Source of the DNA: Heterodontus francisci
Lineage: Eukaryota
Reading direction: 5' to 3'
DNA: 64,000 nucleotides
NCBI RefSeq assembly: GCF_036365525.1
Contig: NC_090410.1
Location: 5,208,001 to 5,272,000 of the forward strand
In this document: piece after piece, positions 16,701 to 63,800 of the stretch
How the letters are laid out: each line of letters starts with the position of its first letter
How positions within the stretch are numbered: position 1 is the stretch's first letter
Notes under the pieces: model-generated
Told to the model about the DNA's origin: nothing
Databases searched by the model: none
What the model saw: only the letters and a program-made list of their open reading frames with translations
Made by a program: the position numbers and the translations under genes

Positions 16701-16817
16701 ACTTGAGCTTATAATCTAGGCTGACATTCCAGTGCTGCACTGTTGGAGATACTGCTTTTCTATCAAATATTAAACAAAGGTCCTATCTGCCCTATCAAGT
16801 GGATGTAAAAGATCCTG

Positions 16818-17870: not shown

Positions 17871-18301
17871 AGTAAACGTCAGTGACTCATACGACTGCAT
17901 TTCAGCAACACTTGCATTTATACAGTGCTTTTAACATAGTAAGACATCCCAAGGTGCTTCATAGCAGCAGAATCAGACACTGAGCCGTGTAATGAGATAT
18001 TAGGACAGGTGACAAAAAGCTTGGCCAAAGAGGTAGGTTTTAAGGAACTTCACAAAAAAGGAGAGAGGGGCTTAGGGAGGGGAAACCAGAGCTTAGGGCC
18101 TAGGCAGCTGAAGGCACAGCCGTCAATGTTGGAGTGACTAAAACAAACAATACACAAGGAGTGCTTCAAAGAACATTTCAGGACATGAGAAAAAGTCAGC
18201 CATTTCAGTCAAGTGAAAGGAAGGTGTCTGCTCCTGTGCTCCAAATTGCTTCTTTGCTCATCAAATGAATATGAGCATCCAATGCAAGTAATTTCAATAA
18301 T

Positions 18302-18307
18302 TTTATT
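18302..18307 (-). promoter_or_regulatory. EIF3K polyadenylation signal AATAAA
   Basis: AATAAA on the minus strand about 70 nt after the stop codon. Confidence 0.6.
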
Positions 18308-18378
18308 GACAAGAATTATGGGAAGAGCATTTTGGTCAGAAAACAAAATAATGGCTGGGAGTTTGTAATAGCGGAAGC

Positions 18379-18410
18379 TCACTGGGATGATGCCATGATG
18401 CTAGCCACAC
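18379..18410 (-). CDS. EIF3K: EIF3K exon 8 (stop)
   Basis: atttccag acceptor; (S)VASIMASSQ-TGA. Confidence 0.96.
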
Positions 18411-19026
18411 CTGGAAATGAAAAAAAAACACATCAGCGCCACATTCTCAATTTGAATTTGAAAATGCACACTTTATAAGAATATCGCCGTTCTTTACTCA
18501 AATTTAACTGTGCATTTCTAAAAAGAAAACTCCACAGTATGACATCCAGGACTGTCAGAAATATTCCACAAATCTGTTTGATCAGCACAGTAATTATTAG
18601 TGATCTTAGCCAGACCAGTATAGTGCCTTTAACATAACAAAACATCCAAAGGCACCTCACGGGACAGTTATCAGATAAAAACTGACTAGTTGCATTGTTC
18701 CTGGGCTGGAGCGGGGAAATCGGTCCTGTTTCCTGCTCCCAGTTGTAATTAAGTGACCACTCCCATCTCTCAACTCAGTGAGAACCCGGGTACGTGACTA
18801 TCAGCTGAGGATATGATCAGTTTGAGCTGTGTGATGCTTCCCACGACCCAATAGGCTGCTGGTGCTCACATCTGTGCAACAGGCAGACGGAGGAGGTGTC
18901 AGTAGGACCCTAGTGAGTCACCGCCACCAGAATAGGGAGTCAGATCTCTTATTAACACAAGAAACACAGTCACAGTCTAACCGTGCCATCCCAAGGGTGA
19001 GGAACTCGTCGATATGTAAAACTCAC

Positions 19027-19152
19027 TGTCAAAATCTATCTTTTCCACAATGTTTTTCGGTTTGATACTTTCTTCTTGGTTGCAGATGAAGATTTTTTCT
19101 GGTTCAGACTCAGTCCAGCCGTATTTACTCATCCAAACTTGCAACTGCATAT
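19027..19152 (-). CDS. EIF3K: EIF3K exon 7
   Basis: gttccag acceptor, A|gtgagt donor; MQLQVWMSKYGW...QEESIKPKNIVEKIDFD. Confidence 0.97.
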
Positions 19153-20621
19153 CTGGAACATAAATGCTTTCACACATTAGTGAGACATTAGCAGATCATT
19201 TATCTTTCAAAAATAAAACAAGCCCTGAAGACAGAGTCTATTCATCCAATCTCAGGGATTGTGACCAGGTGTAGAATGACAAAGCGCCACCAATGAGTTG
19301 TGGGTTCACAGTCTAGATCCGCCTCTGGATCCCACCATGACCTTATATGGCGGGGCTGAATGAAGGTCAGATACTGTTACCGGGAAGAGGGAGATCCACT
19401 TCTGAGCATTCCCCTATGTGTCTACTGACTAGTTTCAGAATAGCACTATAAGCATTTCCAATCCTGATTGCGATGCAGAGTGTGAAGAATATTGTGTTCA
19501 GCATCAAGATCCCAACCTCACCACATAATGGAATACTTAAGAAAAAATTATTTTCAGGATGTGGCATCGCTTCAGCAGTTATTTTGCATCCCCTCGCCAC
19601 CCGGAGAAAGTTTAATACTACTGAATGACTTCTAACGGTGGTTAAGGGTCAACCATTGGTGTGGGACTGGAGTCACGTTTAGACCAGACTGGGTAAGGAT
19701 GGCAGGTTTCCTTCCCTAAAGGACATTAGTGAATCAGTTAGGGTTTTGTCGACAATCTGACAGCTTTATGGTCACTCTTACTGAAAACATCTTTTCAAAA
19801 CTGAATTTAAATTCTCATACTGCCCTAGTGGGATAGAATTTTCCATTAAGTTTGACAAAGATGTAGTTCAATCGAAACGAGGTTCTTAAATCTAAACAAG
19901 GGCAATTATGAAGGTATGAGGAGCAAGATGGCTGTGTTGGATTGGAAAGATACATTAAAAGGTTTGATGGTAAATAGGCAATGGCTAGTATTTAAAATAT
20001 TAATGCATGGTTTTCAAAAAACATCCATTCCTTTAATGCAAAAGAACCCAATAGGAAAAGCGAGTCATCCGTGCCTAACAAAGGAAGTTAAAGATAGTAT
20101 TAGATCAAAGGGGGAGGCTTATAAAGTTACCAAAAAAAAAGGTTGTAAGCCGGAGGATTGGGAGAATTTTAAAATCCAGCAAAGGAGGACCAAGAAATTG
20201 ATAAAGAAAGAGAGAATAGAATATGAATGCAAACTAGCAAGAAATATAAATACGGATTGGAAAAGCTTCTATAGGTATGTAAAAAGGAAAAACATTTAGC
20301 AAAAAGACAAATGTGGGTCCATTACAGACAGAGATAGGAGAATTTATAATGGGAAATAGAGAAATGACAGTGAAGCTAAATAATTACTTTGTGTTTGTCT
20401 TCATGGAGGAAGATATAGGAAGTCTCCCTGAAATAATTGAGATCCAAGGGTCTAGCGAGAATGAGGAACTGAAAGAAATGAGGATTAGTAAAAAACTGGT
20501 TTTGGAGAAATTAATGGGACTGGAAGTTGACAAATGCCTGGGACCCGATAATCTTCACCCTAGAGTGTTGGAAGAGATAGCTGCAGAGATAGTGGATTGG
20601 TGATCATCTTTCAAAATTCTA

Positions 20622-23600
20622 GTGTAAAATTAGTGCAAAAGGCTTAAAGGGGGCAGAATTCTTAAAATGCATACAGCAGAGCTTTTTGAGCCAGTATGTA
20701 GAAAGTCCTACAAGGAAAGGGGCAGTACTGGACCTAATCCTAGGGAATGAAGCCGGACAAGTGGTAGAAGTCTCAGTGGGGAAGCATTTCGGGGATAGTG
20801 ACCATAACTCTAAGATTTAAGGTAGTTATGGAAAAGGACAAAGATGGACCAGAAATGAAGGTAGTGAATTGGGGGAAGGCCGATTTCAATATGATAAAAC
20901 GGGATCTGGCCAAAGTGGATTGGGAGCAGCTACTTGTAGGAAAGTCTACATCAGACCAGTGGGAGTCATTCAAAGAAGAAATAGTGAGAGTTCAGGGCCA
21001 ACATGTACCCGTTAAGGTGAAGGGTAGGACCATCAAGTCCAGGGAACCCTGGATATCAAGGGATATAGAGGATTGGATCAGGAAAAAAAAAGGAGGCTTA
21101 TGGCCGATTCAGAGCGCTGAAAACAGCGGAGGCACTAGAGGAGTATAGAAAGTATAGGGGGTACTTCAAAAAGTAATTAGGAGAACAAAGAGGGGACATG
21201 AAAAAACACCGGCAGGCAAGATAAAGGAAAATCCTAAAGCGTTTTATAAGTATATTAAGGGCAAGAGGATAACTAGGGAAAGGGTAGGGCCCATTCGGGA
21301 CCAAAGTGGCAATCTGTGTGCAGAGCTGGAGGACATAGGTGAGGTTTTAAATTATTTTTCATCTGTATTCATTATGGAGAAGAATGATGTAGATGTAGAG
21401 ATCAGTGAGGGGGATTATGATATACTTGAACATATTAGCATTGAAAGGGAGGAAGTATTAGCTGTTTTAGCGGGCTTAAAAGTGGATATGCTGGGGATGT
21501 TGGCCGCCTTGAGGACTTCTGCATTGGAGATACGGTGCTGCCACCAGAAGTCCTCGAGGCAGCCAACACCCCCAGCATATACACCCTACTGAGCCAGCGA
21601 CGCTTGAGATAGCTTGGCCATGTGAGCCGCATGGAAGATGGCAGGATCCCCAAGGATGCATTGTACAGCGAACTCATCACTGGCATCAGATCCACCAGCC
21701 GTCCAAGTCTCCGCTTTAAAGACGTCTGCAAATGCAACATGAAGTCCTGTAACATTGAAAACAAGTCGTGGGAGTCAGTTGCCAGTGATCGCCAGAGCTG
21801 GTGGACAGCCATAAAGGCGGGGCTAAAGAGTGGCAACTTGAAGAGACTTAGCAGTTGGCAGGAAAAAAGACAGAAGTGCAAGGAGAGAGAGCCAACTGTG
21901 TAACAGCTCCAACAACCAATTTTATCTGCAGCACCTGTGGAAGAGTCTGTCACTCTAGAATTGGCCTTTATAGCCACTCCAGGCGCTGCTCCACAAACCA
22001 CTGACCACCTCTAGGCGCTTACCCATTGTCTCTCGAGACAAGGAGGCCAAAGAAGAAAAGTGGATAAATCCCCAGGCCCAGATGAGATGTATCCCAGGCT
22101 GTTATGTGAGGCAAGGGAGGAGATTGCAGGGGCTCTGACACAAATTTTCAAATCCTGTCTGGCCACAGGAGAGGTACCAGAGGATTGGAGGACAGCGAAT
22201 GTGGTACCATTATTCAAGAAGGGTAGCAGGGATAAACCAGGTAATTACAGGCCGGTGAGTCTAACATCAGTGGTAGGGAAACTATTGGAAAAAATTCTGA
22301 GGGACAGGATTAATCTCCACTTGGAGAGGCAGGGATTAATCAGGGATAGTCAGCATGACTTTGTCAAGGGGAGATCATGTCTAACTAACTTGATTGAATT
22401 TTTCGAGGCAGTGACTAGATGTGTCGATGAGGGTAAAGCAGTTGATGTAGTCTACATGGACTTCGGTAAGACTTTTGATAAGGTCCCGTATGGGAGAGTG
22501 GTTAAGAAGGTAAGCGCCCATGGGATCCAGGGCAATTTGACAAATTGGATCCAAAATTGGCTAATGGCAGGAGGCAGAGGGTGATGGTCGAGGGTTGTTT
22601 TTGCCAGTGGAAGCCTGTGACCAGTGGTGTACCGCAGGGATTGGTGCTGGGACCCTTGTTGTTTGTAGTGTACATTAATGATTTTAATGTGAATATAGGA
22701 GGTATGATCAGTAAGTTCGCAGATGACACGAAAATTGGTGTCGTAAATAGTGAGGAGGAAAGCCTTAGATTACAGGACGATATAGATGGGCTGGTAAGAT
22801 GGGTGGAGCAGTGGCAAATGGAATTTAATCCTGAGAAGTGTGAGGTGATGCATTTTGGAAGGACTAACAAGGCAAGGGAATATACAATGGATGGTAGGAC
22901 CCTAGGAAGTACAGAGGGTCAGAAGGACCTTGGTGTCTTGTCCATAGATCACTGAAGGCAGCAACACAGGTAGGATAAGGTGGTTAGGAAGGCATATGGG
23001 ATACTTGCCTTTATTAGCTGAGGCACAGAATATAAGAGCAGGGAGGTTTTGATGGAGCTGTATAAAATGCTAGTTAGGCCACAGCTGGAGTACTGTGTAC
23101 AGTTCTGGTCACCACATTATAGGATGGATGTGATTGCCCTGGAGAGGATGCAGAGGAGATTCACCAGGATGTTGCCTGGGCTGGAGCATTTCAGCTATGA
23201 AGAGAGACTGAAAAGGCTAGGGTTGTTTTCCTTAGAGCAGAAAAGGCTGAGGGGGGACATGATTGAGGCATACAAAATTATGAGGGGTAATGATAGGTTA
23301 GATAGGAAGAAACTTTTTCCCTTAGCGGAGGGGTCAATAACCAGGGGGCATAGATTTATGGTAAGGGGCAGGTGGTTTAGAGGGGATTTTAGGAAAAGTT
23401 TTTTCAGAGGGTGGTTGGAATCTGGAACACACTGCCTGAAGAGGTGGTAGAGGCAGGAACCCTCACAACATTTAAGAAGTATTTAGATGAGCACTTGAAA
23501 TGCCATAGCATACAAGGCTCTGGGCCAAGTGCTGGGAAATGGGATTAGACTAGTTAGGTGCTTGATGGCTGGCACAGACACAATGGGCCAAATGGCCTGT

Positions 23601-23628
23601 TTCTGTGCTGTATAACTCTATGACTCTA
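20622..23628 (+). mobile_element. Inner CR1 LINE of a different subfamily (APE C-terminus to 3' tail)
   Basis: ORF pieces 20798, 22060, 22545 (FADDTK) and 23049; ends in a TATAACTCTATGACTCTA tail. Confidence 0.9.
21489..22055 (+). mobile_element. 5'-truncated RTE-clade LINE with inverted 5' segment, 11-bp TSD
   Basis: RMEDGRIPKDALYSEL remnant, same family as 36378-38512; TSD AAAAGTGGATA at 21478-21488 and 22056-22066. Confidence 0.92.
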
Positions 23629-26343
23629 TAAATTCTGCAATGGATTGGAAATTTGCAAACGTAACCCCACTGTTTAAGAAAGGAGGGAGAGAGAAAATAG
23701 GGAACTACAGACCTGTTCGGCTGATGTTGGTAGTAGGGAAAATACTAGAATCTATTATAAAGAATGTGATTACTGAACACTTAGAAAATAATGGTCTGAT
23801 TGGGCAGAGTCAACATGGATTTATGAAGGGGAAATCATGTTTGACAAACTTGTTGGAGTTTTTTGAGGATGTTACTAGCAGAGTGGATAAGGGGGAACCA
23901 GTGGATGTGTGGTGTATTTGGACTTTTAGAAGGCTTTTGATAAAGTCCCGCATTACTAAGCAAAATTAAAGCGCATGGAATTGGGGGTAATATACCATCA
24001 TGGATTGAGGATTGGGTAACAGGCAGAAAACAGAAGGTAGGAATAAATGGGTCATTCTCAGGTTAGCAGGCTGTGACCAGTGAGGTACCGCAAGGATCAG
24101 TGCTTGTCGCCAGCTGTTCACAATCTATGTCAATGATTTGGATATGGGGACGAATTGTAGTATTTCCAAGTTTGTGGATGACACAAAACTTGGTGGGAAC
24201 GCGACTTCTGAGGAGGATGCAAAGAGGCTTCATGGGAATTTGGACAGGCTGAGTGAGTAGGCAAGAACATGGCAGATGGAATATAATGTGGATAAGTGTG
24301 AGGTTATCCACTTTGGTAGGGGGAACGGAGGTGCAGAGTATTTCTTAAATGGTGAACGATTGGAAAGTGTTGATGTCCAAAGGGACATGGGAGTCCTTGT
24401 TCATAAGTCACTAAAAACTAGCATGCAGGTGCAGCAAGCAATTCGGAAGGCAAACAGCATGTCAGCCTTTATCGCAAGAGGATTTGAGTACAGAAACAAA
24501 GAAGTCTTGCTTCAATTGTACAGAGCATTGGTGAGGCTGCACCTGGAATATTGTGTGCACTTCTGGTTGCCTTGCCTGAGGAAGGATATACTTGTCATAG
24601 AGGAAGTGCAGTTGAGGTTCACCAGACTGATTCCTGGGATGGAAGGACTGTCCTATGAGGAGAGATTGAGGAGACTGGACCTGTGTTCTCTGGAGTTCAG
24701 AAGACTGAGAGGCGATCTCATAGAAACTTACAAAATTCTTAAAGGGATAGACAAGGTAGATGCAGAAAGGATGTTTCCACTGGCTGTGGGGTCTAGAACC
24801 AGGGGACACAATCTCAGAATAAAGGGCAAACCATTTAGGATTGAGATGAGGAGGAACTTCTTCACTCAGAGGGTGGTGAATCTTTGGAATTCTCTGCCCT
24901 AGAGGGTGGTGGAAGCTCAGTCACTGTGTAAGTTCAAAACAGAGATCGATAGATTTCCGGTTGCTAATGACATCAAGGGATATGGGGATAGTACAGGAAT
25001 ATGCCATTGAGGCAGACGATCAGCCATGATCTAGAATGGCGGAGCAGCCTCGAGGGGCTGAAGGGCCTACTCCTGCTCCGATGTTCCTAAACTCTGGATT
25101 GTCAGTCCAGCATCATAACCACCATGCTACCATACCCTGTGATACTATAAGCTGACAATCAGTGGACTCAAGGACTGAAAAAGCAGTCTATCCGTTACAA
25201 ACAGACTGGTACATTAAACTGTCTCAGTCTTACTTAGAGTACTAGCAGTTTGATATCTTGCATTTTCAGCAACATTTTTACAGGGAGTCTGTTTGGTGAA
25301 GCACAGAGGTTTAGAGAAAATGGTGTTACACACTCGACAAGTTTCTGCAAGTCGGTCTGAATTCACTTTTTGTTTTGAGTGTGGAGCTTGAGCAGTTTAC
25401 CATGTGGTAAAGATGAGGACAGGAAAGAGTAACATCACATTTAACTGCAAGTTGATGGTTTATTTATGCATGCATAAATGCCCAAATTATTGGCATGGAC
25501 GGTTCTACATGTTGCAATAGGATATCCTCAATGGATCAACAGGAACTTACTGTACCATGGCTTTTTAAAGGGGAACCCAAACACAAATTTTAACTGAGAT
25601 CAGGTTTCAAAATTTGGTCTCAAGAGTGAAGAGTTTAATTGCCTCCTATTTCAGCTGGAAAATCAACTGTTTTCTTTCTCTTTCTTTCCTCCTGAAGATG
25701 CTAATTCATCCTGAAGTATCCCCACAGCCATCCCTGGAGTACAAATCCAGTTACTTTCCAGCGGCTCACCCAAGCTGTCACTCTTCACATGCAAGTGTGG
25801 GCTGGACATTCAATCGACAACAAATAACATTGCGCGGAAATCAACAAAGCAGCTCTGCACAGAAATGACAAAAGGATCAGCTGTAAATCATGGGAGACAG
25901 TTAGGAGAGGTGACTGAAGGTTAGGGTGAAAAGGTGAGTTTGGAGAAGATTTTTAAAGGAAAATAGGGGAGCAGTGGTTTAACAAGAGGGGGTTCAAGTG
26001 GTCCAGCCCACTCCAGGGTACAGTGAAATCCAATCGAGGAAAGATGGAACCAAACCAGGGCCATTCTAATTTATATGCCTTAGTTCCGTGCTACCTTTAC
26101 CAACTGATTCAAGCGGCAGTTCATAATTTTTGTACTGCATTAAGAAACGTGGGGAAAGGCCACGGGCATTTTGATTTGAACACTAAGTGAGCAGTGAAGA
26201 TGAAGCATGTTTCTGACTGCATTCACAATATGTTACGTTTACATTTTAAAATTAAATTTAGTTTTATAATTGCCCCTCAGTGCAAACCAGCCCCACGGAC
26301 CAGTCCAGGGCGGTTCCACCTCACCGTCGGCATTAACCCTTAC

Positions 26344-31763: not shown

Positions 31764-32088
31764 ATTTATTTAGAGATACAGCACTGAAACAGGCCCTTCG
31801 GCCCACCGAGTCTGTGCCGGCCATCAACCACCTATGTATACTAATCCTACACTAATCCCATATTCCTACCACATCCCCACCTTCCCTATATTCCCCTACC
31901 ACCTACCTACACTCGGGGCAATTTATAATGGCCAATTTACCTATCAACCTGCAAGTCTTTGGCTGTGGGAGGAAACCGGAGCACCCGGCGAAAACCCACG
32001 CGGTCACAGGGAGAACTTGCAAACTCCGCACAGGCAGTACCCAGAACCGAACCCGGGTCGCTGGAGCTGTGAGGCTGCGGTGCTAACC
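31764..32088 (-). mobile_element. V-SINE (HE1-like), slightly 5'-truncated, inside a CR1 remnant
   Basis: Same family as 17263 and 40428; flanked by ACTGCTT at 31757-31763 and 32089-32095. Confidence 0.88.
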
Positions 32089-32723
32089 ACTGCTTCGACT
32101 GGAAGGAGGGTCAGTAACCAGAGGACACAGATTTAAAGGTAATTGGCAAAAGCATCAGAGGGGAGATGAGGAGAATATTTGACACAGTGAGCACATTCAC
32201 AAGATGCGTGTAACTGTAAAATCCCAAAATATAAAATAACGAGGAACAGAGACAAGCCTGAAGACTTATGAACCGAAGTGTTAATATGGGGCCTCATGGG
32301 GTGAGTTGAGAAGGAAAAGTGACCTCTGCACAAAAAGTGGATTTTTAAAAATTGCACCAATAAAGACAGCTCCTGATGGTTTATCTGCCAAGCACTACCG
32401 AGAATAGAACTGTCACACCAGGCCAGGAAGACCCCAGCTTCTATCTCAGGTGTTTGTACAGTCAGCTAGTTTCAGGCAGGAGAGCTACAATTCATCCCTG
32501 CAACCATGGGTTAGGCAGAAGATAATCAGCCAGTGTTGGGCTTGGTCCCCATAACTGAATACCTTGCTAGAATAAATTCATACATGAATAATGTGAGGTA
32601 CTGGAGTGTGACTAGAGCCCTGGAACTGGGAACTGCACTCCAATGATGGAGCAATACAGGATAGGAGAAAACTGGAAAAAGAACAAGATATTCAGACTTC
32701 TCAAAGTTAAATTAAATACGTAC

Positions 32724-36377: not shown

Positions 36378-38512
36378 CTTCTTCTTTGGCCTCCTTGTCT
36401 CGTGAGACAATGGGTAAGAGCCTGGAGGTGGTCAGTGGTGTGTGGAGCAGCGCCTGGAGTGGCTATAAAGGCCAATTCTAGAGTGACAGACTCTTCCACA
36501 GGTGCTGCAGAAAAATTTGTTTGTCGGGGCTGTTACACAGTTGGCTCTCCCCTTGCGCCTCTGTCTTTTTTCCTGCCAACTGCTAAGTCTCTTCGACTCG
36601 CCACACTTTAGCCCCGCCTTTATGGCTGCCCGCCAGCTCTGGTGAACGCTGGCAACTGACTCCCACGACTTGTGATCAATGTCACAGGCCTTCATGTCGC
36701 GTTTGCAGACATCTTTAAAGCAGAGACATGGACGGCCGGTGGGTCTGATACCAGTGGCGAGCTCGCTGTACAATGTGTCCTTGGGGATCCTGCCATCTTC
36801 CATGCGGCTCACATGGCCAAGCCATCTCAAGCGCCGCTGACTCAGTAGTGTGTATAAGCTGGGGATGTTGGCCGCCTCGAGGACTTCTGTGTTGGAGATA
36901 CGGTCCTGCCACCTGATGCCAAGTATTCTCCGGAGGCAGCGAAGATGGAATGAATTGAGACGCCGCTCTTGGCTGACATACGTTGTCCAGGCCTCGCTGC
37001 CGTAGAGCAAGGTACTGAGGACACAGGCTTGATACACTCGGACTTTTGTGTTCCGTGTCAGTGCGCCATTTTCCCACACTCTCTTGGCCAGTCTGGACAT
37101 AGCAGTAGAAGCCTTTCCCATGCGCTTGTTGATTTCTGCATCTAGAGACAGGTTACTGATGATAGTTGAGCCTAGGTAGGTGAACTCTTGAACCACTTCC
37201 AGAGCGTGGTCGCCAATATTGATGGATGGAGCATTTCTGACGTCCTGCCCCATGATGTTTGTTTTCTTGAGGCTGATGGTTAGGCCAAATTCATTGCAGG
37301 CAGCCGCAAACCTGTCGATGAGACTCTGCAGACACTCTTCAGTGTGAGATGTTAAAGCAGCATCGTCGAGTTCCCTGATGAGGACTTTCCGTACTTTGGA
37401 CTTCGCTCTTAGACGGGCAAGGTTGAACAACCTGCCCCCTGATCTTGTGTGGAGGAAAATTCCTTCTTCAGAGGACTTGAACGCATGTGAAAGCAGCAGG
37501 AGAAGAAAATCCCAAAAAGATTAGGTGCGAGAACACAGCCCTGTTTCACGCCACTTAGGATAGAAAAGGGCTCTGATGAGGTGCCGCCATGTTGAATTGT
37601 GCCTTTCATATTGTCATGGAATGAGGTGATGATACTTAGTAACTTTGGTGGGCATCCAATCTTTTCTAGTAGTCTGAAGAGACCACGTCTGCTGACGAGG
37701 TCAAAGGCTTTGGTGAGATCAATGAAAGCAATGTAGAGGGGCATCTGTTGTTCGCGGCATTTCTCCTGTATCTGACAAAGAGAGAACAGCATGTCAACGG
37801 TCGATCTCTCTGCACGAAAGCCACACTGTGCCTCAGGGTAGACGCGCTCGGCCAGCTTCTGGAGCCTGTTCAGAGCGACTCGAGCAAAGACTTTCCCCAC
37901 TATGCTGAGCAGGGAGATTCCACGGTAGTTGTTGCAGTCACCGCGGTCACCTTTGTTTTTATAGAGGGTGATGATATTGGCATCGCGCATGTCCTGAGGT
38001 ACTGCTCCCTCGTCCCAGCACAGGCATAGCAGTTCATGTAGTGCTGAGAGTATAGCAGGCTTGGCACTCTTGATTATTTCAGGGGTAATGCTGTCCTTCC
38101 CAGGGGCTTTTCCGCTGGCTAGAGAATCAATGGCATCACTGAGTTCCAATTTTGTTGGCTGTCTGTCCAGCTCAACCATGACTGGTAGAGGCTGGGCTGC
38201 ATTGAGGGCAGTCTCAGTGACAGCATTCTCCCTGGAGTACAGTTCTAGGTAGTGCTCAACCCAGCAGTCCATTTGTTTGCGTTTGTCAGTGATTGTGTCC
38301 CCTGATTTAGATTTGAGGGGGGCGATCTTCTTGATGGTTGGCCCAAGGGCTCTCTTAATGCCATCATACATTCCTCTGATGTTTCCGGTGTCTGAGGCCA
38401 GCTGAATATGACTGCATAGGTGTTGCCAGTAGTCGTTTGCGCAGCGCCTGGCTGTTGTTTGTGCAGTGCTTCTGGCTGCTTTAAGAGCTACGGATGTTAA
38501 CTCGCTGGGGGC
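36378..38512 (-). mobile_element. 5'-truncated RTE-clade LINE (RT plus C-terminal CCHC-like motif), inactivated
   Basis: ORFs 37409-38371 and 36432-37430 (FIDLTKAFD, GVKQGCVLAP, CSTCGRVCHSRIGLYSH); one frameshift and loss of the FA residues before DD; GAA-type tail. Confidence 0.92.
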
Positions 38513-41500
38513 TATTCATATATTTGTCAAGATGTCTCTTAAACGTCGCTATCGTATCTGCTTCCACCACCTCCTCTGGCAGCAAGTTCCAGGCACTCAC
38601 CACCCTCTGTGTAAAGAACTTGCCTCGCACATCCCCTCTAAACTTTGCCCCTCGCACCTTATACCTATGTCCCCTAGTAACTGACTCTTCCACCCTGGGA
38701 AAAAGCTTCTGACTATCCACTCTGTCCATGCCGCTCATAACTTTGTAAACCTCTATCATGTCGCCCCTCCACCTCCGTCGTTCCAGTGAAAACAATCCGA
38801 GTTTTTCCAACCTCTCCTTATAGCTAATGCCCTCCAGACCAGGCAACATCCTGGTAAACCTCCTCTGTACCCTCTCCAAAGCCTCCACATCCTTCTGGTA
38901 GTGTGGCAACCAGAATTGCACGCAATATTCTAAGTGGGGTCTAAATAAGGTTCTGTACAGCTGCAACATGACTTGCCAATTTTTATACTCTATGCCCTGA
39001 CCGATGAAGGCAAGCATGCTGTATGCCTTCTTGACCACCTTATCCACCTGCGTTGCCACTTTCAGTGACCTTTGGACCTGTCCGCCCAGATCTCTCTGCC
39101 TGTCAATACTCCTAAGGGTTCTGCCATTTACTGTATACCTCCCACCTGCATTAGACCTTCCAAAATGCATTACCTCACATTTGTCTGGATTAAACTCCAT
39201 CTGCCATTTCTCCGCCCAAGTCTCCAACCGATCTATATCCTGCTGTATCCTCTGACAATCCTCATCATTATCCGCAACTCCACCAACCTTTGTGTTGTCC
39301 GCAAACTTACTAATCAGACCAGCTACATTTTCCTCCAAATCATTTATATATACTACAAACAGCAAAGTTCCCAGCACTGATCCCTGCGGAACACCACTAG
39401 TCACATCCCTCCATTCAGAAAAACACCCATCCACTGTTACCCTCTGTCTTCTGTGACTGAGCCAGTTCTGTATCCATCTTGCCAGCTCACCTCTGATCCT
39501 GTGTGATTTCACCTTTTGCACCAGTCTGCCATGCGGGACCTTGTCAAAGTCTTTACTAAAATCCATATAGACAACATCCACCGCCCTTCCCTCATCAATC
39601 ATCTTCGTCACTTCTTCAAAAAACTCAATCAAATTAGTAAGACACGACCTCCCCTTCACAAAACCATGCTGTCTCTTGCTAATAAGTTCGTTTGTTTCCA
39701 AATGGGAGTAAATCCTGTCCCGAAGAATCCTCTCTAATAGTTTCCCGACCACTGACGTAAGGCTCACCGGCCTATAATTTCCTGGATTAAACAAAGGAAC
39801 AACATTGGCTATTCTCCAGTCCTCTGGGACTTCACCTGTAGCCAATGAGGATGCAAAGATTTCTGTCAAGGCCCCAGCAATTTCTTCCCTTGCCTCCCTC
39901 AGTATTCTAGGGTAGATCCCATCAGGCCCTGGGGACTTATCTACCTTAATGCTTTGCAAGACACCCAACACCTCCTCCTTTTTGATAATGAGATGACTGA
40001 GACTATCTGCACTCCCTTCCCTTGGCTCATCATCCACCAAGTCCTTCTCCTTAGTGAATACTGATGCAAAGTACTCATTTAGCACCTCACCCATTTCCTC
40101 TGGCTCCATGCATAGATTCCCATCTCTGTCCTTGAGTGGGCCAACCCTTTCCCTGGTTACTCTCTTGCTCTTTATATATATATAAAAAGCCTTGGGATTT
40201 TCCTTAATCCTGTTTGCCAATGACTTTTCATGACCCCTTTTAGCCCTCCTAACTCCTTGCTTAAGTTCCTTCCTACTGTCTTTATATTCCTCAAGTGCTT
40301 CATCTGTTCCTAGCCTTCCAGCCCTTACAAATGCTTCCTTTTTCTTTTTGACTAGGCTCACAATATCCCGTGTTATCCAAGCTTCCCGAAACGTGCCAAA
40401 CTTGTCTTTCTTCCTCACAGGAACATGTTTAGTTTAGTTTAGAGATACAGCACTGAAACAGGCCCTTCGGCCCACCGAGTCTGTGCCGACCATCAACCAC
40501 CCATTTATACTAATCCTACACTAAGCCCATATTCCTACCACATCCCCACCTGTCCCTATATATTTCCCTACCACCTACCTATACTAGGGGCGATTTATAA
40601 TGGCCAATTAACCTATCAACCTGCAAGTCTTTGGCATGTGGGAGGAAACCGGAGCACCCAGAGGAAACCCACGCAGACACAGGGAGAACTTGCAAACTCC
40701 ACACAGGCAGTACCCAGAATCGAACCCGGGTCCCTGGAGCTGTGAGGCTGCGGTGCTAACCACTGCGCCACTGTGCCGCCAACATGCTGCTCCTGGATTC
40801 TAATCAGCTGACGTTTGAAAGACTCCCACATGTCAGATGTTGATTTACCCTCAAACAGCCGCCCCCAATCTAAATTCTTCAGTTCCTGCCGAATATTGTT
40901 ATAATTAGCCTTCCCCCAATTTAGCACCTTCACCCGAGGATTACTCTTATCCTTATCCACAAGTACCTTAAAACTTATGGAATTATGGTCACTGCTCCCG
41001 AAATGCTCCCCCACTGAAACTTCGACCACCTGGCCGGGCTCATTCCCCAATACCAGGTCCAGAATGGCCCCATCCCTAGTTGGACTATCTACATACTGTT
41101 TCAAGAAGCCCTCCTGGATGCTCCTCACAAATTCTGCCCCATCCAAGCCCCTAGCACTAAGTGAGTCCCAGTCAATATTGGGGAAGTTAAAATCACCCAC
41201 CACTACAACCCTGTTACCTTTACATCTTTCCAAAATCTGTCTACATATCTGCTCCTCTACCTCCCGCTGGCTGTTGGGAGGCCTGTAGTAAACCCCCAAC
41301 ATCGTGACTGCACCCTTCCTATTCCTGAGCTCCACCCATATTGCCTCGCTGCATGACCCCTCCGAGGTGTCCTCCTGCAGTACAGCTGTGATATTCTCCT
41401 TAACCAGTAATGCAACTCCCCCACCCCTTTTACATCCCCCTCTATCCCGCCTGAAGCTTCTAAAGCCTGGAACATTTAGCTGCCAATCCTGCCCTTCCCT

Positions 41501-41746
41501 CAACCAAGTCTCTGTAATAGCAACAACATCATATTTCCAAGTACTAATCCAAGCTCTAAGTTCATCTGCCTTACCTGTTATACTTCTCGCATTGAAACAA
41601 ATGCACTTCAGACCACCAGTCCCGCTGTGCTCAGCAACATCTCCCTGCCTGCTCTTCCTCTTAGTCCTACTGGCCTTATTTACTATGTCCTCCTCATTTA
41701 CTTCACTAGCTGTCCTACTGCTCTGGTTCCCACCCCCCTGCCACAC
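38512..41746 (-). pseudogene. CR1 ORF2 (APE endonuclease + reverse transcriptase), interrupted
   Basis: In frame after removing the SINE and one TSD copy (QEQHV|PVRKKDK). RT motif reads FADNT instead of FADDT, there is a 6-aa deletion (VVPLF|NPGNY), and the C-terminus is cut by the RTE. Confidence 0.9.
40428..40780 (-). mobile_element. Full-length V-SINE (HE1-like) with 6-bp TSD
   Basis: A box TGGCGCAGTGG, B box GGTTCGATTCT, V-domain, TAAAC tail; AACATG at 40422-40427 and 40781-40786. Confidence 0.92.
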
Positions 41747-42489
41747 TAGTTTAAACCCTCCCGAGTGACACTAGCAAACCTTGCAGCCAGGATATTAGTG
41801 CCCTTCCAGTTTAGATGCAACCCATCCTTCTTGTACAGGTCCCATCTGTCCCTGAAGACAGCCCAATGGTTCAGATATCTGAAACCCTCCCTTCTACACC
41901 AGTTGCTCAGCCACGTGTTTTGCTGCACTATCTTCCTATTTCTAGCCTCACTGGCACGTGGCACAGGGAGTAATCCCGAGATTACAACCCTAGAGGTCCT
42001 GTTTTTTAACTTACTACCTAACTCCCTAAACTCCCCCTGCAGGACCTCATCACTCTTCCTGCCTATGTCGTTGGTACCGATGTGTACCACAACCTCTGGC
42101 TGTTCACCCTCCCCCTTCAGAATGCCCCCTGTCCATTCAGAGACATCCTTGACCCTGGCACCAGGGAGGCAACATCCCATCCTGGAGTCTCTTTCACGTC
42201 CACAGAAGCGCCTATCTGTGCCCCTGACTATAGAGTCCCCTATAACTACTGCTCTTCTGCGCTTTGTCCCTCCCTGCTGAACAACAGTGCCAGCCGTGGT
42301 GCCACTGCTCTGGCTGCTGCTGTTTTCCCCTGATAGGCCATCCTCCCCAACAGTATCCAAAACGGTATACTTGTTAGAGAGGGGGATAGCCACAGGGGAT
42401 TCCCGCACTGACTGCCTGCCCCTTCTAGCGGTCACCCATCTATCTGTCTGTACCTTGGGTGTAACCACTTTTTCAGTTTTTTTTCCCAC
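41746..42489 (-). CDS. CR1 ORF1 C-terminal part, SGNH/GDSL esterase domain
   Basis: VIGDSIVR, CLPGAR, VHIGTND and DGLHLN blocks; the N-terminal zinc-finger/coiled-coil region appears deleted. Confidence 0.88.
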   Translation of the reverse strand: MGKKTEKVVTPKVQTDRWVTARRGRQSVRESPVAIPLSNKYTVLDTVGEDGLSGENSSSQSSGTTAGTVVQQGGTKRRRAVVIGDSIVRGTDRRFCGRERDSRMGCCLPGARVKDVSEWTGGILKGEGEQPEVVVHIGTNDIGRKSDEVLQGEFRELGSKLKNRTSRVVISGLLPVPRASEARNRKIVQQNTWLSNWCRREGFRYLNHWAVFRDRWDLYKKDGLHLNWKGTNILAARFASVTREGLN

Positions 42490-42679
42490 CCGAGGTAACT
42501 TACCGCTCTGGAACTCCTCCCTCTGAGTCTGTTCCGAGAATCTCCGAGGTTAACTCCGCCCTCCGAGTCTGCTCCGAGAATCTCCGAGGTTAACTCCGCC
42601 CTCCGAGTCTGCTCCGAGAATCCCCGAGGTAAGTTTTTTTATATACTCACCGCTCCGGAACTCCGCCCTCCGAGTCTGC
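42490..42679. repeat. About 40-bp tandem repeats in CR1 5' UTR
   Basis: Repeated AACTCCGCCCTCCGAGTCTGCTCCGAGAATCTCCGAGGTT. Confidence 0.85.
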
Positions 42680-44617: not shown

Positions 44618-46500
44618 TTCATAAATAGTAAAAGGGTGGTAAAAGGAGGAGTGGGGCCAATTAGGGACCATAAGGGGGAATTACACATGGAGGCAGGGGA
44701 ACTAGCTGAGGTATTAAATGAATACTTTGCATCTGTCTTTACCAAGGAAGAAGATGCAACCCAGGCCACGGTGAACGAGGAGGTAATTATTACACTAGAA
44801 GGATTTAAAATGTTTAAGGAGGAGATATTAGATAGGCTGCTGTACTTAAAGTTGATAAAGCACCAGGACCAGATGAGATGCATCCAAGGATACTGAGGGA
44901 AGTGAGAGTGGAAATTGCAGAGGCACTGGTCATAATTTTCCAGTCTTCCTTAGACTCAGGGTGGTGCTAGAGGATTGGAGAATTGCAAATGATACACCCT
45001 CGTTCAAAAAAGGATGTAAAAATAAGCCCAGCAACTACAGGACAGTCAGTTTAACTTCGCTGGTGGGGAAACTTCAAAACAATAATTTGGGACAAAATAA
45101 TTAGTCACATGGACAAATGTGGGTTAATTAAGGAAAGCCAGCATGGATTTGTTAAGGGAAAGTCATGTCTAATGAATTTGCTGGAGTTTTTTGAAGGGGT
45201 AACAGAGAGTTGATGAGGACAATGCTATTGATGTGGTGTACATGGACTTTCAAAAGGCATTTGATACAGTGCCACATAATAGAGCAAAGTTGAATTGAAT
45301 AAAAGGGATGGTAGCAACATGGATATAAAATTGGCTGAGTGACTGGAAACAGAGAGTAGTGGTTAATGGATGTTTTTCAGGCTGGAGGAAGGTTTGTAGT
45401 GGAGTTCCCCAGGGGTCAGTGTTGGGATCCTTGCTCTTCCTGATATATATTAATGAATTAGACCTTGGTAAACAGGGCACAATTTCAAAATTTGCAGTTG
45501 ATACAAAACTTGGAAGCATTATGAACTGTGAAGAGGAAAGAGTAGAACTTCAAAAGGACATAGACAAGCTTGTGGAATGAGTGGACAAGTGGCAAATGAA
45601 GTTCAATGCAGAGAAATGTGAAGTGATACATTTTGGTAGGAAGAACATGGAGGGACAATATAAAATAAAGGGTACAATTCCAAAATGGGTGCAGGAGCAG
45701 AGGACCTGGGTGTATATGTGAATAAGTCATTGAAGGTGGCAGGACAGGTTGAGAACGCACTTAATAAAGCATACAGTATCCTAGACTTTATTAATAGGGG
45801 CATAGAAAAGAAAGAATGTGCAGGATTAAGGGGAGAAGGTGGGGAAGGTGGGGGAACGGCAATGCAGACACGATGGGCCAAATGGTCTCCTTCTGTGCTG
45901 TAATAATTCTTGATTCTGTGATAGTAAGTATGTTGAACTTGTATAAGACACTAGTTTGGCCTCAGCTGGAGTATTGCGTCCAGTTTTGGGTGCTGCATTT
46001 AAGGAAATATGTGAAGGCATTGGAGAGAGTGCAGAAAAGTTTCACGAGAATGGTTCCAGGGATGAGGAACTTCATTTACAAAGGTAGATTGGAGAAGTTG
46101 GGACTGTTTTCCTTGGAGAAGAGAAGGCTGAGAGGAGATTTGATAGAGGTATTCAAAATCATGAGAAGTCTGGAGAGACTAGATAGAGAGAAACTATTTC
46201 CACTTGTGAAAGGATCGAGAACAAGAGAGCACAGATTTAAGGTAACTGGCAAAAAAAGCAATGGTGACATGTAGGAAAACTTTTTCACACAGCGAGTGGT
46301 TAGGATCTGGAATGCACTGCCTGAGTGTGTGGTGGAGGCAGGTTCAATCGAGGCATTCAAGATAGTTACCTGAAAAGGAAGAATGTGCAGGATTAAGGGG
46401 AGAAGGCGGGGGAATGGCAAATAAGTGAATTGCTCACTCGGAGAGCTGGTGCAGACACGATGGGCTAAATGGTCTCCTTCTGTGCTGTAACAATTCTGTG
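44618..46500 (+). mobile_element. 5'-truncated decayed CR1 LINE
   Basis: Frameshifted RT remnants (GVPQGSVLG, LEYCVQFW) and CR1 3' tail. Confidence 0.9.
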
Positions 46501-49900: not shown

Positions 49901-51039
49901 GCCCCCCTGAATTTGAATAGACACAAAATTCACTGTTCAAGCCTTCGTGGTTCAGCCTGTAACTGTATCTCAGCATGAATGGATGCCTTCAGGAGAGGAT
50001 ATGAGAAACAGGAAGATGGGATGTCAAAATTGTAAACTCATTTCGAGAGTAACTTTAATAAAATGGAGAGTTTTTAAAAAAACAATTGGATATATTTTCT
50101 GTTGACAAATGTCATTGAGTTGGTGAAACGTTTTTATTCCCAGTCTGTAAACCAAGGAATTCCAGACCAGGTACGATAAGAGTTTGCAGTATTCAGTAAA
50201 GCTCCCTCTAATTTAACCAACTTTAGCCCCCACCTCAGTGGACTGCTTCTTAACTGTACCCATCCTCCTTACAGCCTCTCTGAGTGACATTCCCAACTTA
50301 AGGCTGGTTTCGGGACTGATCATGCTTCTGGCAACAAGACAGTGCTGTGTTACAACCAAGACATCTACCAGAAGCATGGTCAGAATATGTGCCAGTCAGA
50401 GCAAGGGGTAGACGAGCCCTGCTTAGAGATGGGAAAAGCACCAGGAGATATGGGGTCACTTCATGTATACTGACCGCTGGGAGACTTGCCCTAGCACCAC
50501 ACACAACCCTACAGGGACCTGTACCCTTAGCTTTCACCCTTACTAATGCCCTCTACATCACGACCAAATTGGACTTCTCCAACCCATCACCAAGCACCCC
50601 TCGCCCTAATATATAATAGAACAATGCAACTATATATTGCTCGTGTCTCTCCGCATGTGAGAGAAAATAGTCTAAATCAAGCCATAGTCATGAGATAGCA
50701 CGTAACCTTAAATACAATGAAATAAAGGGTAGTTTTGCATCACGTATTTGAGTCCATGGTTACTGAAGCTGCCGGAGATTTCACTCAGAACTCCGCACTT
50801 GGCAGAGAGAGGGGCAGAAACACACGCACAAAGACACTCTCTGGTCGGGCTGGCCTCAGTCCCAGATCGAAGAAGATAAAGGATGACATTCTAACGGTCT
50901 GTGTCACTCAGTCCTTTGGCAGTGTGTGTTCTAATTGCCCTTGTGATGATGTTGAGAATTGGAAATGAAATGTAGATGAGATGATCTTTGAGTCCTGGAC
51001 TTTGGCTTTCAGTAGAAATCGGGTCATTTCGCATGAATG

Positions 51040-51645
51040 GTAGATAAGCTGGTCAAGAAGGCATTCAAGATACTTTCCTTTATTGGCTGACACAGAGTAA
51101 AAGAGCAGGGTGGTTAGGCTCGAACTGTACAAAACAGAGCCCAGAGCTAGAGTACTGCATGCAATACGGGAAGGATGTGATTGCACTAGAGAGGATACAG
51201 AGGAGATTTACAAGGAAGTTGCCAGGAATGGGGAATTTTAGCTATGAAGAAAAAATGAATGGGTTGGGGTTGTTTGGAACAGATGAGGCTGAGGGGAAAT
51301 TTAATTGAGGTGTATAAAATTATGAGAGGCCTGGATAGAGTGGATAGGAAGAACCTATTTCCCTTAGCAGAGAGATCAATAACCAGAGGGCACAGATTTA
51401 AAGTAATTGGTGGAAGGATTAGAGGAAATTTGAGGAGAAAGTTTTTCACCCAGAGGGTGGTGGGGATCTGGAATTCACTACCTGAAAGGGTGGTAGAGGC
51501 AGAAACCCTCACCACGTTTAAAAATTATTTGGCTACGGACCAAGAGCTGGAAAGTGGGATTAGGCGGAATAGCTCTTTGTTGGCCAACACAGACATGATG
51601 GGCCAAATGGTCACCTTCTGTGTCGTACGTTTTCTATGGTTCTGT
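51040..51645 (+). mobile_element. CR1 3' fragment
   Basis: ORF 51259 RLRGNLIEVYKIMRG...FFTQRVVGIWNSLP. Similar fragments lie near 150, 5790, 9085, 14085, 49365, 56680 and 63080. Confidence 0.85.
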
Positions 51646-55100: not shown

Positions 55101-55475
55101 ATTGGCTGTGGAACGCTTTGGGACATCCCAAACACGACAGAAATCCTTCAGCTCCAACAATATGGATTTAACTCCACTACGGTTTGGAATGTTCTCTGTA
55201 TACTAAAGGCATGATAAGAAATACAACTTGTTAACCCACCCTCAATGGATGATCCTTTAACTGTATCAGTCATCATAGCTTCCTCCCTGTGTGAGATTCC
55301 CCATGTCGTGCCAGTTAGTAGCTTGGACAGGTCACCAGGAACTAGACTAAAATGCTAGGGATCTTTAAGCCTCGATTTTCTGCCAGCACTATTTTAATGC
55401 TGCTAGTGACCTAGGTTACACCAGCCGCGAGAGGAGACTTTCAGTCCATCAGTGTACAGTCCATCAGTGTACAGT

Positions 55476-56010
55476 ATTAGTCTCCTTATTTAAAGAAGGA
55501 TGTAAATGTGTTGGAAACCGTTCACAGAAGGTTTACTAAACTAATACCTGGAATCTGATGAGGAAAGATTGGACAGGCTAGGCTTGTATCTGCTGGAGTT
55601 TAGAAGAGTAAGAGGCGACTTGATTGAAACATATAAGATCCTGAGGGGTCTTGACAGGGTGGATGTGGAAAGGATGTTTCCCCTTGTGGGAGAATCTAGA
55701 ACTAGGGGTCACTGTTTAAAAATAAGGGGTTGGTCATTTAAGACCGAGATGAGGAGAAATTTCTTCTCTCAGAGGGTCATGAGTCTTTGGAATTCTCTTC
55801 CTCAAAAGGTTGTGGAAGCAGAGTCTTTGAATATTTCTAAGGCAGAGGTAGATAAATTCTTGATAAGCAAGGGGGTGGAAGGTTATTGGGAGTAGACGGA
55901 AATGTGGAGTTAGGTTACAATCAGATCAGCCATGATCTTGTTGAATGATAGAGCAAGTTTCAGGGGCCGAGTGGCCTACTCCTGCTCCTAATTTGTATGT
56001 TCGTATGTCG
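55476..56010 (+). mobile_element. CR1 3' fragment
   Basis: ORF 55569 GDLIETYKILRGLDRVD...NFFSQRVMSLWNSLP, ending in a TATGTTCG tail. Confidence 0.88.
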
Positions 56011-60850: not shown

Positions 60851-63800
60851 GTGAGTCAATGTGAATGGTATTCTGGGAGCTTCCTTTATTTGAATCACAC
60901 ACAAAATTGGAAACAAAGGAAAGTTTATTTTACTTTGGAAGTTTTAAAAACAAAAGACTTTAAACTTGGTGACAATAATGACGGAAATACCTTGACTTTA
61001 AAAGCCAAGATTGCTGTACGATTTCACGTGATGCGGTGATCAAAATTCTAGAATTGTTTAATTTTGATTAAACAGATTTAAAATTGATAATTTCTCAAGT
61101 AACTCACATAATTTGCTCCAGGCAGCACAATTAATTCAATTTAATTTGGGGTCAACAGTGTCATGAGTCAAATACCTCAAGCCCAGTTCTTCTGTTAAAA
61201 TTAGGGAAGACAGGTATTTTAACAATTAACACTTTCTTAATGCCTCAATATCTGGAAAAGAATAATTAAACTGCGTGATGAAGCCAGGAGCCTCCCAGTA
61301 ATCAACCTGCTCTTCACAGTGTAGGTCAAGCAGCTCCTGTTTGACCTGATGAGCACTAGGCCTTGCCTTTTTGGTGGACTGTTTCTCACACATAAATGTG
61401 CGTTGAAATGCCAACTGCTGCGTTGGTGTGAGGACGGCTGTTTCATACTGATGCTGCAGTTATCATATAAATGGACCTGCGGCCAATGATGTCCTGAAGT
61501 GAAGTGAGACTCCCCACAGGAGGTTACCTCTCCAATTTGCTTCCAATCCAACTTGAGCCTTTGCCCCTATTTACAAGTTTAGCGTTGATGAAAATGTTTA
61601 GCATTGGTGTTGACTTTGCACCAATAGTGAACTTGCTGAGGGTGGATACATTGGCCTATTTCTGTGCTGTGAATCCATTCAACCCAACTGGCCTGCATTG
61701 GTATTAATGCTTCAGATGAACCTCCACCCATGCTACTTCATCTAAACCTACAAGTAATTCGGGACATCCTGAAGCCATGCACCCCAATTTGGTTGCCTAT
61801 TAAGCCTATCATCCTGGATACAGCCCCATCTGTGGAAGCTTTGTCTTGTGAGATACAATTATTTTTCATGGTGATAATCCAGTGCTCAGCAGGGCCAAGA
61901 GGCTGATCCCCGGGGATGAGAGAACTGAGTAATTACAGGAGAAACAGCCCAGGGAAATCTATAAAATCGTATATGATCTAGAAAATTTATATGGCACAGG
62001 CACGATGGGCTGAATGGCCTCCTTTTGTGCTGTACTACCGAATGATTCTGTGTCAGGAAGTTATCTTTTGCACAGTAATTAGCTCATGAAACGGACTTCA
62101 GGGAGCAGAGAGTTACTGAAATGATTTTGGAAATCTCTGAATACTGTGTTGTGTGACAGGGAGTAGGGTTTGTATTAGCTGGATGAGCTGAAGTGGGGGG
62201 AATGGCTTTCCTCAACTGTACCTGTCTAGTGATGGTATTGGATGTGACGAAGCAATGCTAGATTGGTGTTTCAGTGACCTGGTGATGTGAGATTCTGATC
62301 TCTTGTAGTACAGACCACTGATCTGAAACCAGCACACTGTCTAGATTTATGAGACACTGCTGTCTCCGATGATGCATTACCACTTGGTTAGAGTGCTGCT
62401 ACCTGCTGCAACACGAAGACTTCAACCAGCGGGACAGATCTGAAGCAGTAATTCAAGGGCATTGAGAGAGCCACACCCCAGGTTCAGCTTTCTGTCTGAT
62501 ACTGGATAACCTATAGGTTGGATCATATTATGCAGACTGGCGTGTATTCCACGCAGGATAACATGGAGAGTGTTACTGAGCTATCCCAAGATTCATCCGC
62601 CTCTATTGACAGAAGCCTTTTTCAAAGCCTATCTTTATTACTAAGCTTTCAGTCACGACTTCTAACCCTCCCACTGTGGCCTGACATCTATTCCTATATC
62701 TACCTTATTATTTTCTCCCTGTCCAGGAAGTGCCTTGGGATGCTTTTTCCTATGTTAAAGGGGCTATATAAATGAAACTATTGTTGTTCAATGGTATGTT
62801 TGATGCTTGTACATTCCCTGATCCAACCACATTGCTGCAGTGGTACAATCTGTGGGTGCCAGAATCTGGTGATGGAGTCAGTCGTCCTCTTTGGAGACTC
62901 GCCATATGTAATGAGCAAGCCTACAGATGCTAATCTATCGCTCGATCACCCAAATGTACTGAAACATTCATCTGTAGCCCTGCAAGAGTCAGTAACTCAC
63001 CAGGCCCATGAGTGTTAGATGCAGATGCATTGAGTGAGCTTTGGATCTTAGGGAGGATAAATTAGCCTGGGAGGGAGGGCAGTACGGATTTACCAGAATG
63101 ATACATGGACCCCAAATGATAAATTACAAGGAGAGATGACACAAACTAGGGTTGTATTCCCTGGAACTTAGACGGTTAAGGGTTGATTTGCTGGAAGTTT
63201 TCAAGATATTAAGGAGAACAGATAGGGTAGATCGAGAAGAACTATTTCTGCGGTGGGGAAGTCTAGGACTAGGGAACAGTTTAAAAATTAGAGCCAGACC
63301 TATCATGAGTGAAATTAGGAACCACTTCTACACACAAAGTGTGGTAGAAGTTTGCAACTTTCTTCCACAAAGGGAATTGATGCTAGATCAATTGTTTAAA
63401 ATTGAGACTGATAGATATTTTTTAACCAAAGATATAAAGGGATATCGGGCAAAGATACATATATAGAGTTAGGTCGCAGATAACCATGTTCTTATTGAAT
63501 GACGGAACAGACTTGAGGGGCTGAAAGGCCTCCTCCTGTTCCGATGCATCTGACCTGGGATTGGGAAGTGGAGAGGGGGCTTTACTCTGTCTAATTTAGA
63601 TCAGATCTAGAACTGTTTGGTCCTGAAGTGCATTCTCAGAGTTAGTAGGCAACGCAGAGATAATACCAACATTTATAGCTAAGTGGTTGATGGGAAAAGT
63701 GATTATGGGAACAGGAACAAGCACTTGGGATTACGATACTGTTCGTGTGGAGGATAATCACTGGTATGAACTGGTTTGGCTGAGTGGCCTGTTTCTGTGC

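Follow-up and report, generated by a model that had tools for sequence, protein, structure and literature searches.

It is an open question how LINEs translate the second open reading frame (ORF2) of a bicistronic RNA (PMC3708506). The case considered here is the junction between the two ORFs of a CR1 copy on the minus strand of the 64,000-nucleotide stretch of Heterodontus francisci DNA analyzed here (hereafter, the window). Among retrotransposons, the CR1 group dominates in most vertebrates (PMC13343379). In a preliminary description, this junction was proposed to be a site of -1 ribosomal frameshifting from which an ORF1-ORF2 (esterase-APE-RT) fusion protein would arise. The sequence tests applied to that proposal were mostly favorable, and we consider it likely that CR1 elements make such a fusion by programmed -1 frameshifting at U_UUA_AAC. 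Ribosomes with UUA in the P site and AAC in the A site would slip to UUU and AAA, and the minority that shifted back by one base would produce, at low frequency, an esterase-linker-endonuclease-RT fusion whose junction peptide should read E-G-L-N-L-V-W-Q-G. The majority would terminate at the ORF1 stop and release ORF1p, so that a high ratio of ORF1p to RT would be set by the shift, as in Gag/Gag-Pol.

The element has an esterase-type ORF1 and an ORF2 with both APE and RT domains, which is the domain content of a canonical CR1 LINE (Table 1). Esterase ORF1s are known in CR1 and L2, and chondrichthyan L2 is without ORF1 (PMC13343379, section 15). The closest named relatives of the window ORF1 are those of sharks and rays, and the CR1 label rests on domain content and on the named hosts of these relatives. 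The copy itself is dead. Its ORF1 start is gone together with the Cys-rich N-terminal part found in full-length relatives (translation compared with the alignment), its ORF2 is split by a SINE-like insertion that renders the copy non-functional, and its 3' end is absent, as likeness to other CR1 copies stops near 38514, ahead of any 3' UTR, where another LINE starts. It holds the only ORF1/ORF2 junction in the 64-kb window.

Table 1. Features of the CR1 copy and of its ORF1-ORF2 junction (positions in the window)
Feature	Positions	Strand	Evidence or remark
Three tandem 40-bp repeats 5' of ORF1	42512..42630	-	Probably left over from the 5' region of the element
ORF1 remnant, SGNH/GDSL esterase	41746..42549	-	Pfam Lipase_GDSL_2, E 1e-13; profile match to ZfL2-1 ORF1 esterase 4C1B, E 8e-43
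Upstream in-phase heptamer G GGT TTA	41752..41758	-	Lineage-specific, not conserved
Slippery heptamer T TTA AAC, likely -1 shift site	41749..41755	-	Conserved
ORF1 stop TAG directly 3' of the heptamer	41746..41748	-	TAA at 17-81% of depth in four runs
G-rich tract	41729..41742	-	GG at +7 and G-run from +11; equal spacing in L001
51-codon linker without ATG, open only in the ORF2 frame	41597..41749	-	Stop counts and shuffles
APE endonuclease domain of ORF2	40985..41596	-	Pfam Exo_endo_phos, E 1e-19
SINE-like insertion splitting ORF2, 353 bp	40428..40780	-	6-bp duplication CATGTT at the flanks; AAACT repeats at the end
Reverse transcriptase domain of ORF2	39141..39785	-	Pfam RVT_1, E 1e-31

On the minus strand, ORF1 ends with GAG (41760-41758), GGT (41757-41755), TTA (41754-41752), AAC (41751-41749) and TAG (41748-41746), exactly as first described. 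Both G GGT TTA and T TTA AAC are in phase with these codons. The ORF2 frame is -1 relative to that of ORF1, with CTA beginning at 41749. A TAG at 41773-41771 closes it upstream, so that the frame is open from 15 nt ahead of the heptamer and overlaps ORF1 by 22 nt. Between the junction and the first APE motif, the 51 codons of the linker contain no stop in the ORF2 frame vs. 5 and 8 in the other two frames, and 2.2% of 5000 shuffles left the linker open. Of the 384 codons of this ORF, the first to read ATG in frame is number 157, within the APE domain. The openness of the -1 frame and the lack of an AUG ahead of the endonuclease, both pointed out previously, are therefore borne out, while the absence of ATG from one linker is not significant by itself, as 42% of the shuffles were also without ATG. 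The density of canonical heptamers in the window is 0.0044 per position (0.00014 for TTTAAAC itself), so that one of them would fall by chance in any of the seven in-phase sites of the overlap in ~3% of cases, and ORF1 has four further in-phase canonical heptamers besides the two at its end. For these reasons, the single copy is weak, suggestive evidence, and it is conservation across relatives that exceeds chance. The heptamer, its phase, the -1 frame of ORF2, the open linker and the missing ATG are conserved across lineages, as detailed below.

At the protein level, we collected 237 ORF1 relatives, 110 by sequence and 127 more by profile. After 78 without a recognizable DGLHL-type motif were dropped, the 159 that were kept yielded 147 distinct tails, and removal of 9 outside the range of 15-45 aa left 138. 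Eighty-one of these tails end with Leu-Asn-stop, 9 with Gly-Asn-stop, 3 with Lys-Asn-stop and 45 otherwise, including 8 that carry Lys-Asn at one fixed internal place. Translation of U_UUA_AAC, G_GGA_AAC and A_AAA_AAC would yield Leu-Asn, Gly-Asn and Lys-Asn; Leu, Gly and Lys have little chemistry in common, yet all have XXA codons (TTA, GGA and AAA). Leu, Gly or Lys precedes the terminal Asn in 93 of the 99 tails ending with Asn, compared to 18% of the Asn residues in protein bodies. Ahead of Leu-Asn stands any of 13 kinds of residue of diverse chemistry; residues that have no T-ending codon account for 1 of 81 at this place vs. 87 of 405 over the next five positions upstream (Fisher p 8e-7, a value that overstates independence because the tails are related). 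Gln precedes Gly-Asn in 8 of 9 tails, which makes CAG GGA AAC possible. Named carriers of Leu-Asn include sharks, rays, coelacanth, sturgeon, frogs, turtles, a monitor lizard and a swallow, so the signal extends well beyond the single CR1 lineage to which it had been ascribed. Three shark/ray-like CR1 proteins (P0015, P0069 and P0158) stand under bacterial species names in public databases and are probably host contamination.

In an esterase tree built with FastTree from the 138 rows, with the terminal residues left out, the group that contains the window copy and the named vertebrate proteins has Leu-Asn in 66 of 72 rows, although the support of its node is only 0.05. Its sister group comprises 14 Leu-Asn, 9 Gly-Asn, 3 Lys-Asn, 8 internal Lys-Asn and 21 other rows. 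As the Gly-Asn and Lys-Asn forms lie within one subclade, they stand for few events, and in these lineages, sampled as proteins, the codons and phase would be those named above.

It might be argued that the ORF1 protein needs a Leu-Asn C-terminus and that the heptamer is its by-product. Among the 72 tails of 26 aa, Leu and Asn are indeed conserved at 93 and 96%, which equals the level of the catalytic motif. A need for these residues does not account, however, for the replacement of Leu by Gly or Lys, for the movement of Leu-Asn with the stop across tail lengths of 22-39 aa, or for a preceding residue that is otherwise so free and yet shuns those without T-ending codons. The joint choice of codons has a probability of ~1% per lineage by the element's own codon usage. 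Furthermore, Leu-Asn falls past the last helix of the predicted structure, at low confidence (termini often score low), and the crystallized ZfL2-1 esterase aligns only up to profile position 304 of 308, with Leu-Asn beyond it. We regard this explanation as highly improbable.

DNA-level evidence came directly from the window, from one distant locus and from contigs of four organisms. The distant locus, L001, is a CR1 with 45% identity over the esterase and a tail nearly identical to that of a sturgeon protein. Its junction reads CAT TTA AAC TAG AAA GGA AGG GGG G and is like that of the window in heptamer, stop and spacing of the G residues. As in the window, an X_XXY_YYZ heptamer is phased with the upstream ORF and the downstream ORF is open in -1; the first Met of the ORF2 frame falls past the first APE motif. 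L001 has no G_GGU_UUA heptamer, and Gly stands before Leu-Asn in just 26 of the 81 tails. Thus, of the two overlapping heptamers noted at the outset, both are correctly phased in the window and U_UUA_AAC is the one that is conserved. TTTAAAC-stop and the -1 phase, whose conservation had been put forward as a check, are kept in the DNA of L001 and implied by the proteins from sharks to birds.

The contigs of the four organisms were aligned to 41640-41860 at 80% likeness, and such an alignment is best where reads match, which favors apparent invariance. Among the 40 of 70 variant rows listed, there were no substitutions at 41747-41763 or 41725-41743, and the rows listed contained no indels at the junction. 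Depth peaked over 41736-41759 in three of the four runs; in run X17 it reached ~400,000 at the junction vs. at most 6,500 over the catalytic motif, and run X6 had no peak at the junction. This suggests that diverged families share the junction stretch better than the catalytic motif, although depth is not equal to copy number. TAA replaces TAG as the stop at 17, 18, 24, and 81% of depth, and variation is also seen two bases past the stop. Nucleotide conservation at the junction goes beyond what the amino acids need, and the heptamer site is real and conserved far beyond this dead copy. Further scans of metagenomes returned 0 loci and then 40 loci, among them 1 CR1 junction and 6 L2-like ones; a genome scan gave 25 loci with weak matches, nearly all in records titled bacterial; and no related junctions were found by viral scans or by plasmid and phage searches.

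The conserved island reaches past the heptamer for ~40 nt, including the G-run, which would also be expected if the junction were a nucleic-acid motif with another job, such as protein binding, packaging, splicing or transcript slippage, and if ORF2 were made otherwise. That no classical stimulator was found (see below) points the same way. The constraint is, however, in the codon phase of ORF1 and moves with the stop; the TAG/TAA variation of the stop would break an AG splice acceptor; and the homopolymer runs are just 3 nt long, which is short for polymerase slippage. A separate nucleic-acid function is therefore very unlikely.

Under the rival model of termination-reinitiation, ribosomes would stop at the end of ORF1 and restart, either at a codon overlapping that stop (UAAUG, the SART1 arrangement; GUG in this copy) or without need of an AUG, in the manner of mammalian L1, and ORF2p would be a separate protein. 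Eight predicted proteins, which include ray, turtle and bird ones, run through the junction and read F-K-L in the ORF2 frame (P0001, P0067, P0069, P0195, P0198, P0214, P0267, and P0378). The residue that follows is D, D, I, E, T, K, G or M in these proteins, E in L001 and V in the window; the corresponding codons all begin with a purine, as a TAR stop demands, and Gly is the fourth residue after the Leu of F-K-L in 10 of 10 reads. Among these ten lineages, the codon that overlaps the ORF1 stop encodes Met in one and D, E, K, G or T in seven, which argues against reinitiation at that codon. The window has UAGUG and L001 UAGAA at the place of a SART1-type AUG. The Met lineage is a ray subfamily (P0378, P0135, and P0379) that reads F-K-L-M and has a UAAUG stop-start behind an intact heptamer. 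Elsewhere, the first APE motif could be located in 58 of 120 ORF2 relatives, where the called start lies 1 to 199 residues ahead of it, and no start position is common across these families. Several other families carry a Met in the linker and could reinitiate; an AUG is not available to the window copy or to L001. The question of whether ORF2 has an AUG of its own, raised earlier as a check, is thus answered in two parts: the lineages have no start codon in common, and in a single ray subfamily the stop is overlapped by an AUG.

Several observations nevertheless fit reinitiation. The ORF1 stop overlaps the first ORF2-frame codon, which is ATG in the ray subfamily and GTG in the window copy, and in run X17 an overlapping ATG accounts for at least ~40% of depth, as estimated from marginal shares. 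UGGGA, a calicivirus-type reinitiation motif, occurs 96 nt (window) and 81 nt (L001) upstream, but it simply codes for Trp-Asp, at codons that differ between the two. SART1 uses UAAUG (PMC3708506), and any sense codon is tolerated in place of the AUG of L1 ORF2 (as cited in PMC1965478). Reinitiation would leave unexplained the codon-level constraint on the heptamer and the switch among Leu, Gly and Lys. We consider it unlikely as the general mechanism; it is the main rival to frameshifting because no stable 3' stimulator was found and because one ray subfamily has UAAUG. In that subfamily (window equivalent of the start, 41744-41746), reinitiation could operate alongside frameshifting.

The stimulator is the weakest step of the frameshift reading. 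No 3' stimulatory structure was found 5-9 nt downstream of the heptamer: z values for 3' folds were +0.75, -0.35, and +1.51, and from -0.8 to +1.5 vs. shuffles in a second analysis, with pseudoknots and protein-dependent stimulators outside the model, and there was no Rfam match. A stem enclosing the slip site, suspected by eye, folded no better than shuffles (z 0.01 in the window and +2.16 in L001), and the best distal partner of the G tract, at -25.7 kcal/mol and ~1090 nt downstream, was beaten by 1 of 25 control 21-mers and is left out of account. The G-rich tract, GGCAGGGGGGTGGG, which had been highlighted in the preliminary description, is present from 7 nt past the heptamer and its position is conserved in L001; as a stimulator it is a candidate only. 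ViennaRNA predicted a two-tier G-quadruplex 6 nt past the heptamer in the window and none in L001. Three-tier quadruplexes cause up to ~7% shifting at a spacing of 6-8 nt, and those with fewer tiers cause less (PMC3919603); with two tiers at most in the window and none predicted in L001, a G-quadruplex is unsupported as a general stimulator. With neither a stable 3' hairpin nor a pseudoknot stem turning up, we favor as candidates the stop next to the heptamer and the G-run, whose position is conserved, although the latter could also be just a Gly linker.

A heptamer with a 0-frame stop directly after it is found in Rous sarcoma virus and luteoviruses. Like retroviral/LTR gag-pol and coronavirus 1a/1b, the CR1 junction has an in-phase X_XXY_YYZ with a polymerase ORF downstream in -1, and U_UUA_AAC is the site of IBV (PMC5009743). 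It differs from them in that the element is of the non-LTR type and has no protease, and in that neither a hairpin nor a pseudoknot stem was detected 5-9 nt past the heptamer. The preliminary description noted that LINE ORF2 translation is usually attributed to reinitiation and that gag-pol-type -1 shifts are typical of retroviruses and LTR elements. The former has precedents in SART1 and L1, and Dictyostelium TRE5-A and TRE3-A, which are APE-type non-LTR elements, are listed in a figure legend of a review as needing a -1 frameshift for ORF2 translation (PMC5911963). These elements belong to another host kingdom and have another type of ORF1, whereas CR1 has an esterase ORF1 and a heptamer abutting its stop. 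SART1 and mammalian L1 share with CR1 the -1 geometry in which the ORF1 stop overlaps the first ORF2-frame codon, and one ray CR1 subfamily even has UAAUG; in CR1, by contrast, there is no conserved AUG, a slippery heptamer is conserved before the stop, and the predicted product is a fusion instead of a separate ORF2p. Virus-like translational recoding is also represented in CR1-group elements by the 2A/StopGo of APE-type non-LTR elements (PMC3708506), which acts in frame within one ORF, whereas the CR1 junction changes frame between ORF1 and ORF2.

We found no report of frameshifting in CR1 in the open full-text literature searched; the original CR1 descriptions of 1997-2003 and the Repbase entries may mention the overlap. 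"CR1" is absent from the first 300,000 of the 449,034 characters of the Atkins review, and a term search plus section 15 of a 2026 survey of CR1-group elements in vertebrates (PMC13343379) gave no "frameshift". Term searches gave nothing relevant in PMC3905857, PMC4120745, PMC4255032, PMC4176376, PMC5006619, bioRxiv 788562 and PMC11835228 (first 300,000 characters). The junction is probably a programmed -1 frameshift site; the mechanism is known, and the searched literature holds no report of it in these elements.

Six L2-type esterase-ORF1 loci were found (L002:2608, L003:1794, L004:1322, L005:1134, L006:531, and L035:398), of which L002 and L035 are near-identical. In each, a long downstream ORF follows in frame behind a single TGA, which is TGA-C in 5 of the 6. 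The length of the open stretch ranges from 99 to 1031 codons; the first Met comes at 41 to 139, and its place is not fixed. The ORF of L035 has APE and RT, with its first Met inside the APE. To judge from these sequences, this looks like stop-codon readthrough in a sister clade, which would likewise give an ORF1-ORF2 fusion. A broader proposal is that LINEs with an esterase ORF1 make an ORF1-RT fusion by recoding overall, through UGA readthrough in L2 and, in CR1, through a -1 shift that has been retained from a time before sharks and tetrapods diverged. Related lineages would have exchanged U_UUA_AAC, G_GGA_AAC and A_AAA_AAC for one another, and an unstructured stimulator (stop plus G-run) would drive the CR1 shift instead of a pseudoknot. 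We advance this proposal tentatively and hold its chances to be somewhat short of even.

If frameshifting at U_UUA_AAC is true, the CR1 reverse transcriptase would be produced as an extension of the ORF1 esterase, in a low and fixed proportion like that of Gag-Pol. It would account for gene callers beginning CR1 ORF2 at scattered methionines and would change the annotation of the ORF2 N-terminus. The junction is a short sequence that is directly testable in a reporter, and if shifting proved efficient without 3' structure, the stimulator itself would be new.

Other features of the window concern its LINE and SINE-like content. The LINE that abuts the 3' end of the CR1 copy extends over 36432-38515 (minus) with its RT domain in two frames, and it looks RTE-like. 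The SINE-like insert has related copies at 17264-17478 and 31765-32093 of the window, and ARAGORN detected no tRNA gene in it (40428-40780, minus). Near 39900 (minus), the window ORF2 has a short in-frame deletion just ahead of the RT domain, compared to P0004. Older 5'-truncated CR1-like ORF2 fragments, mostly on the plus strand and none with ORF1, lie at 16811-25000, 44618-46361, 51031-51570, 55469-55868, and 63050-63421.
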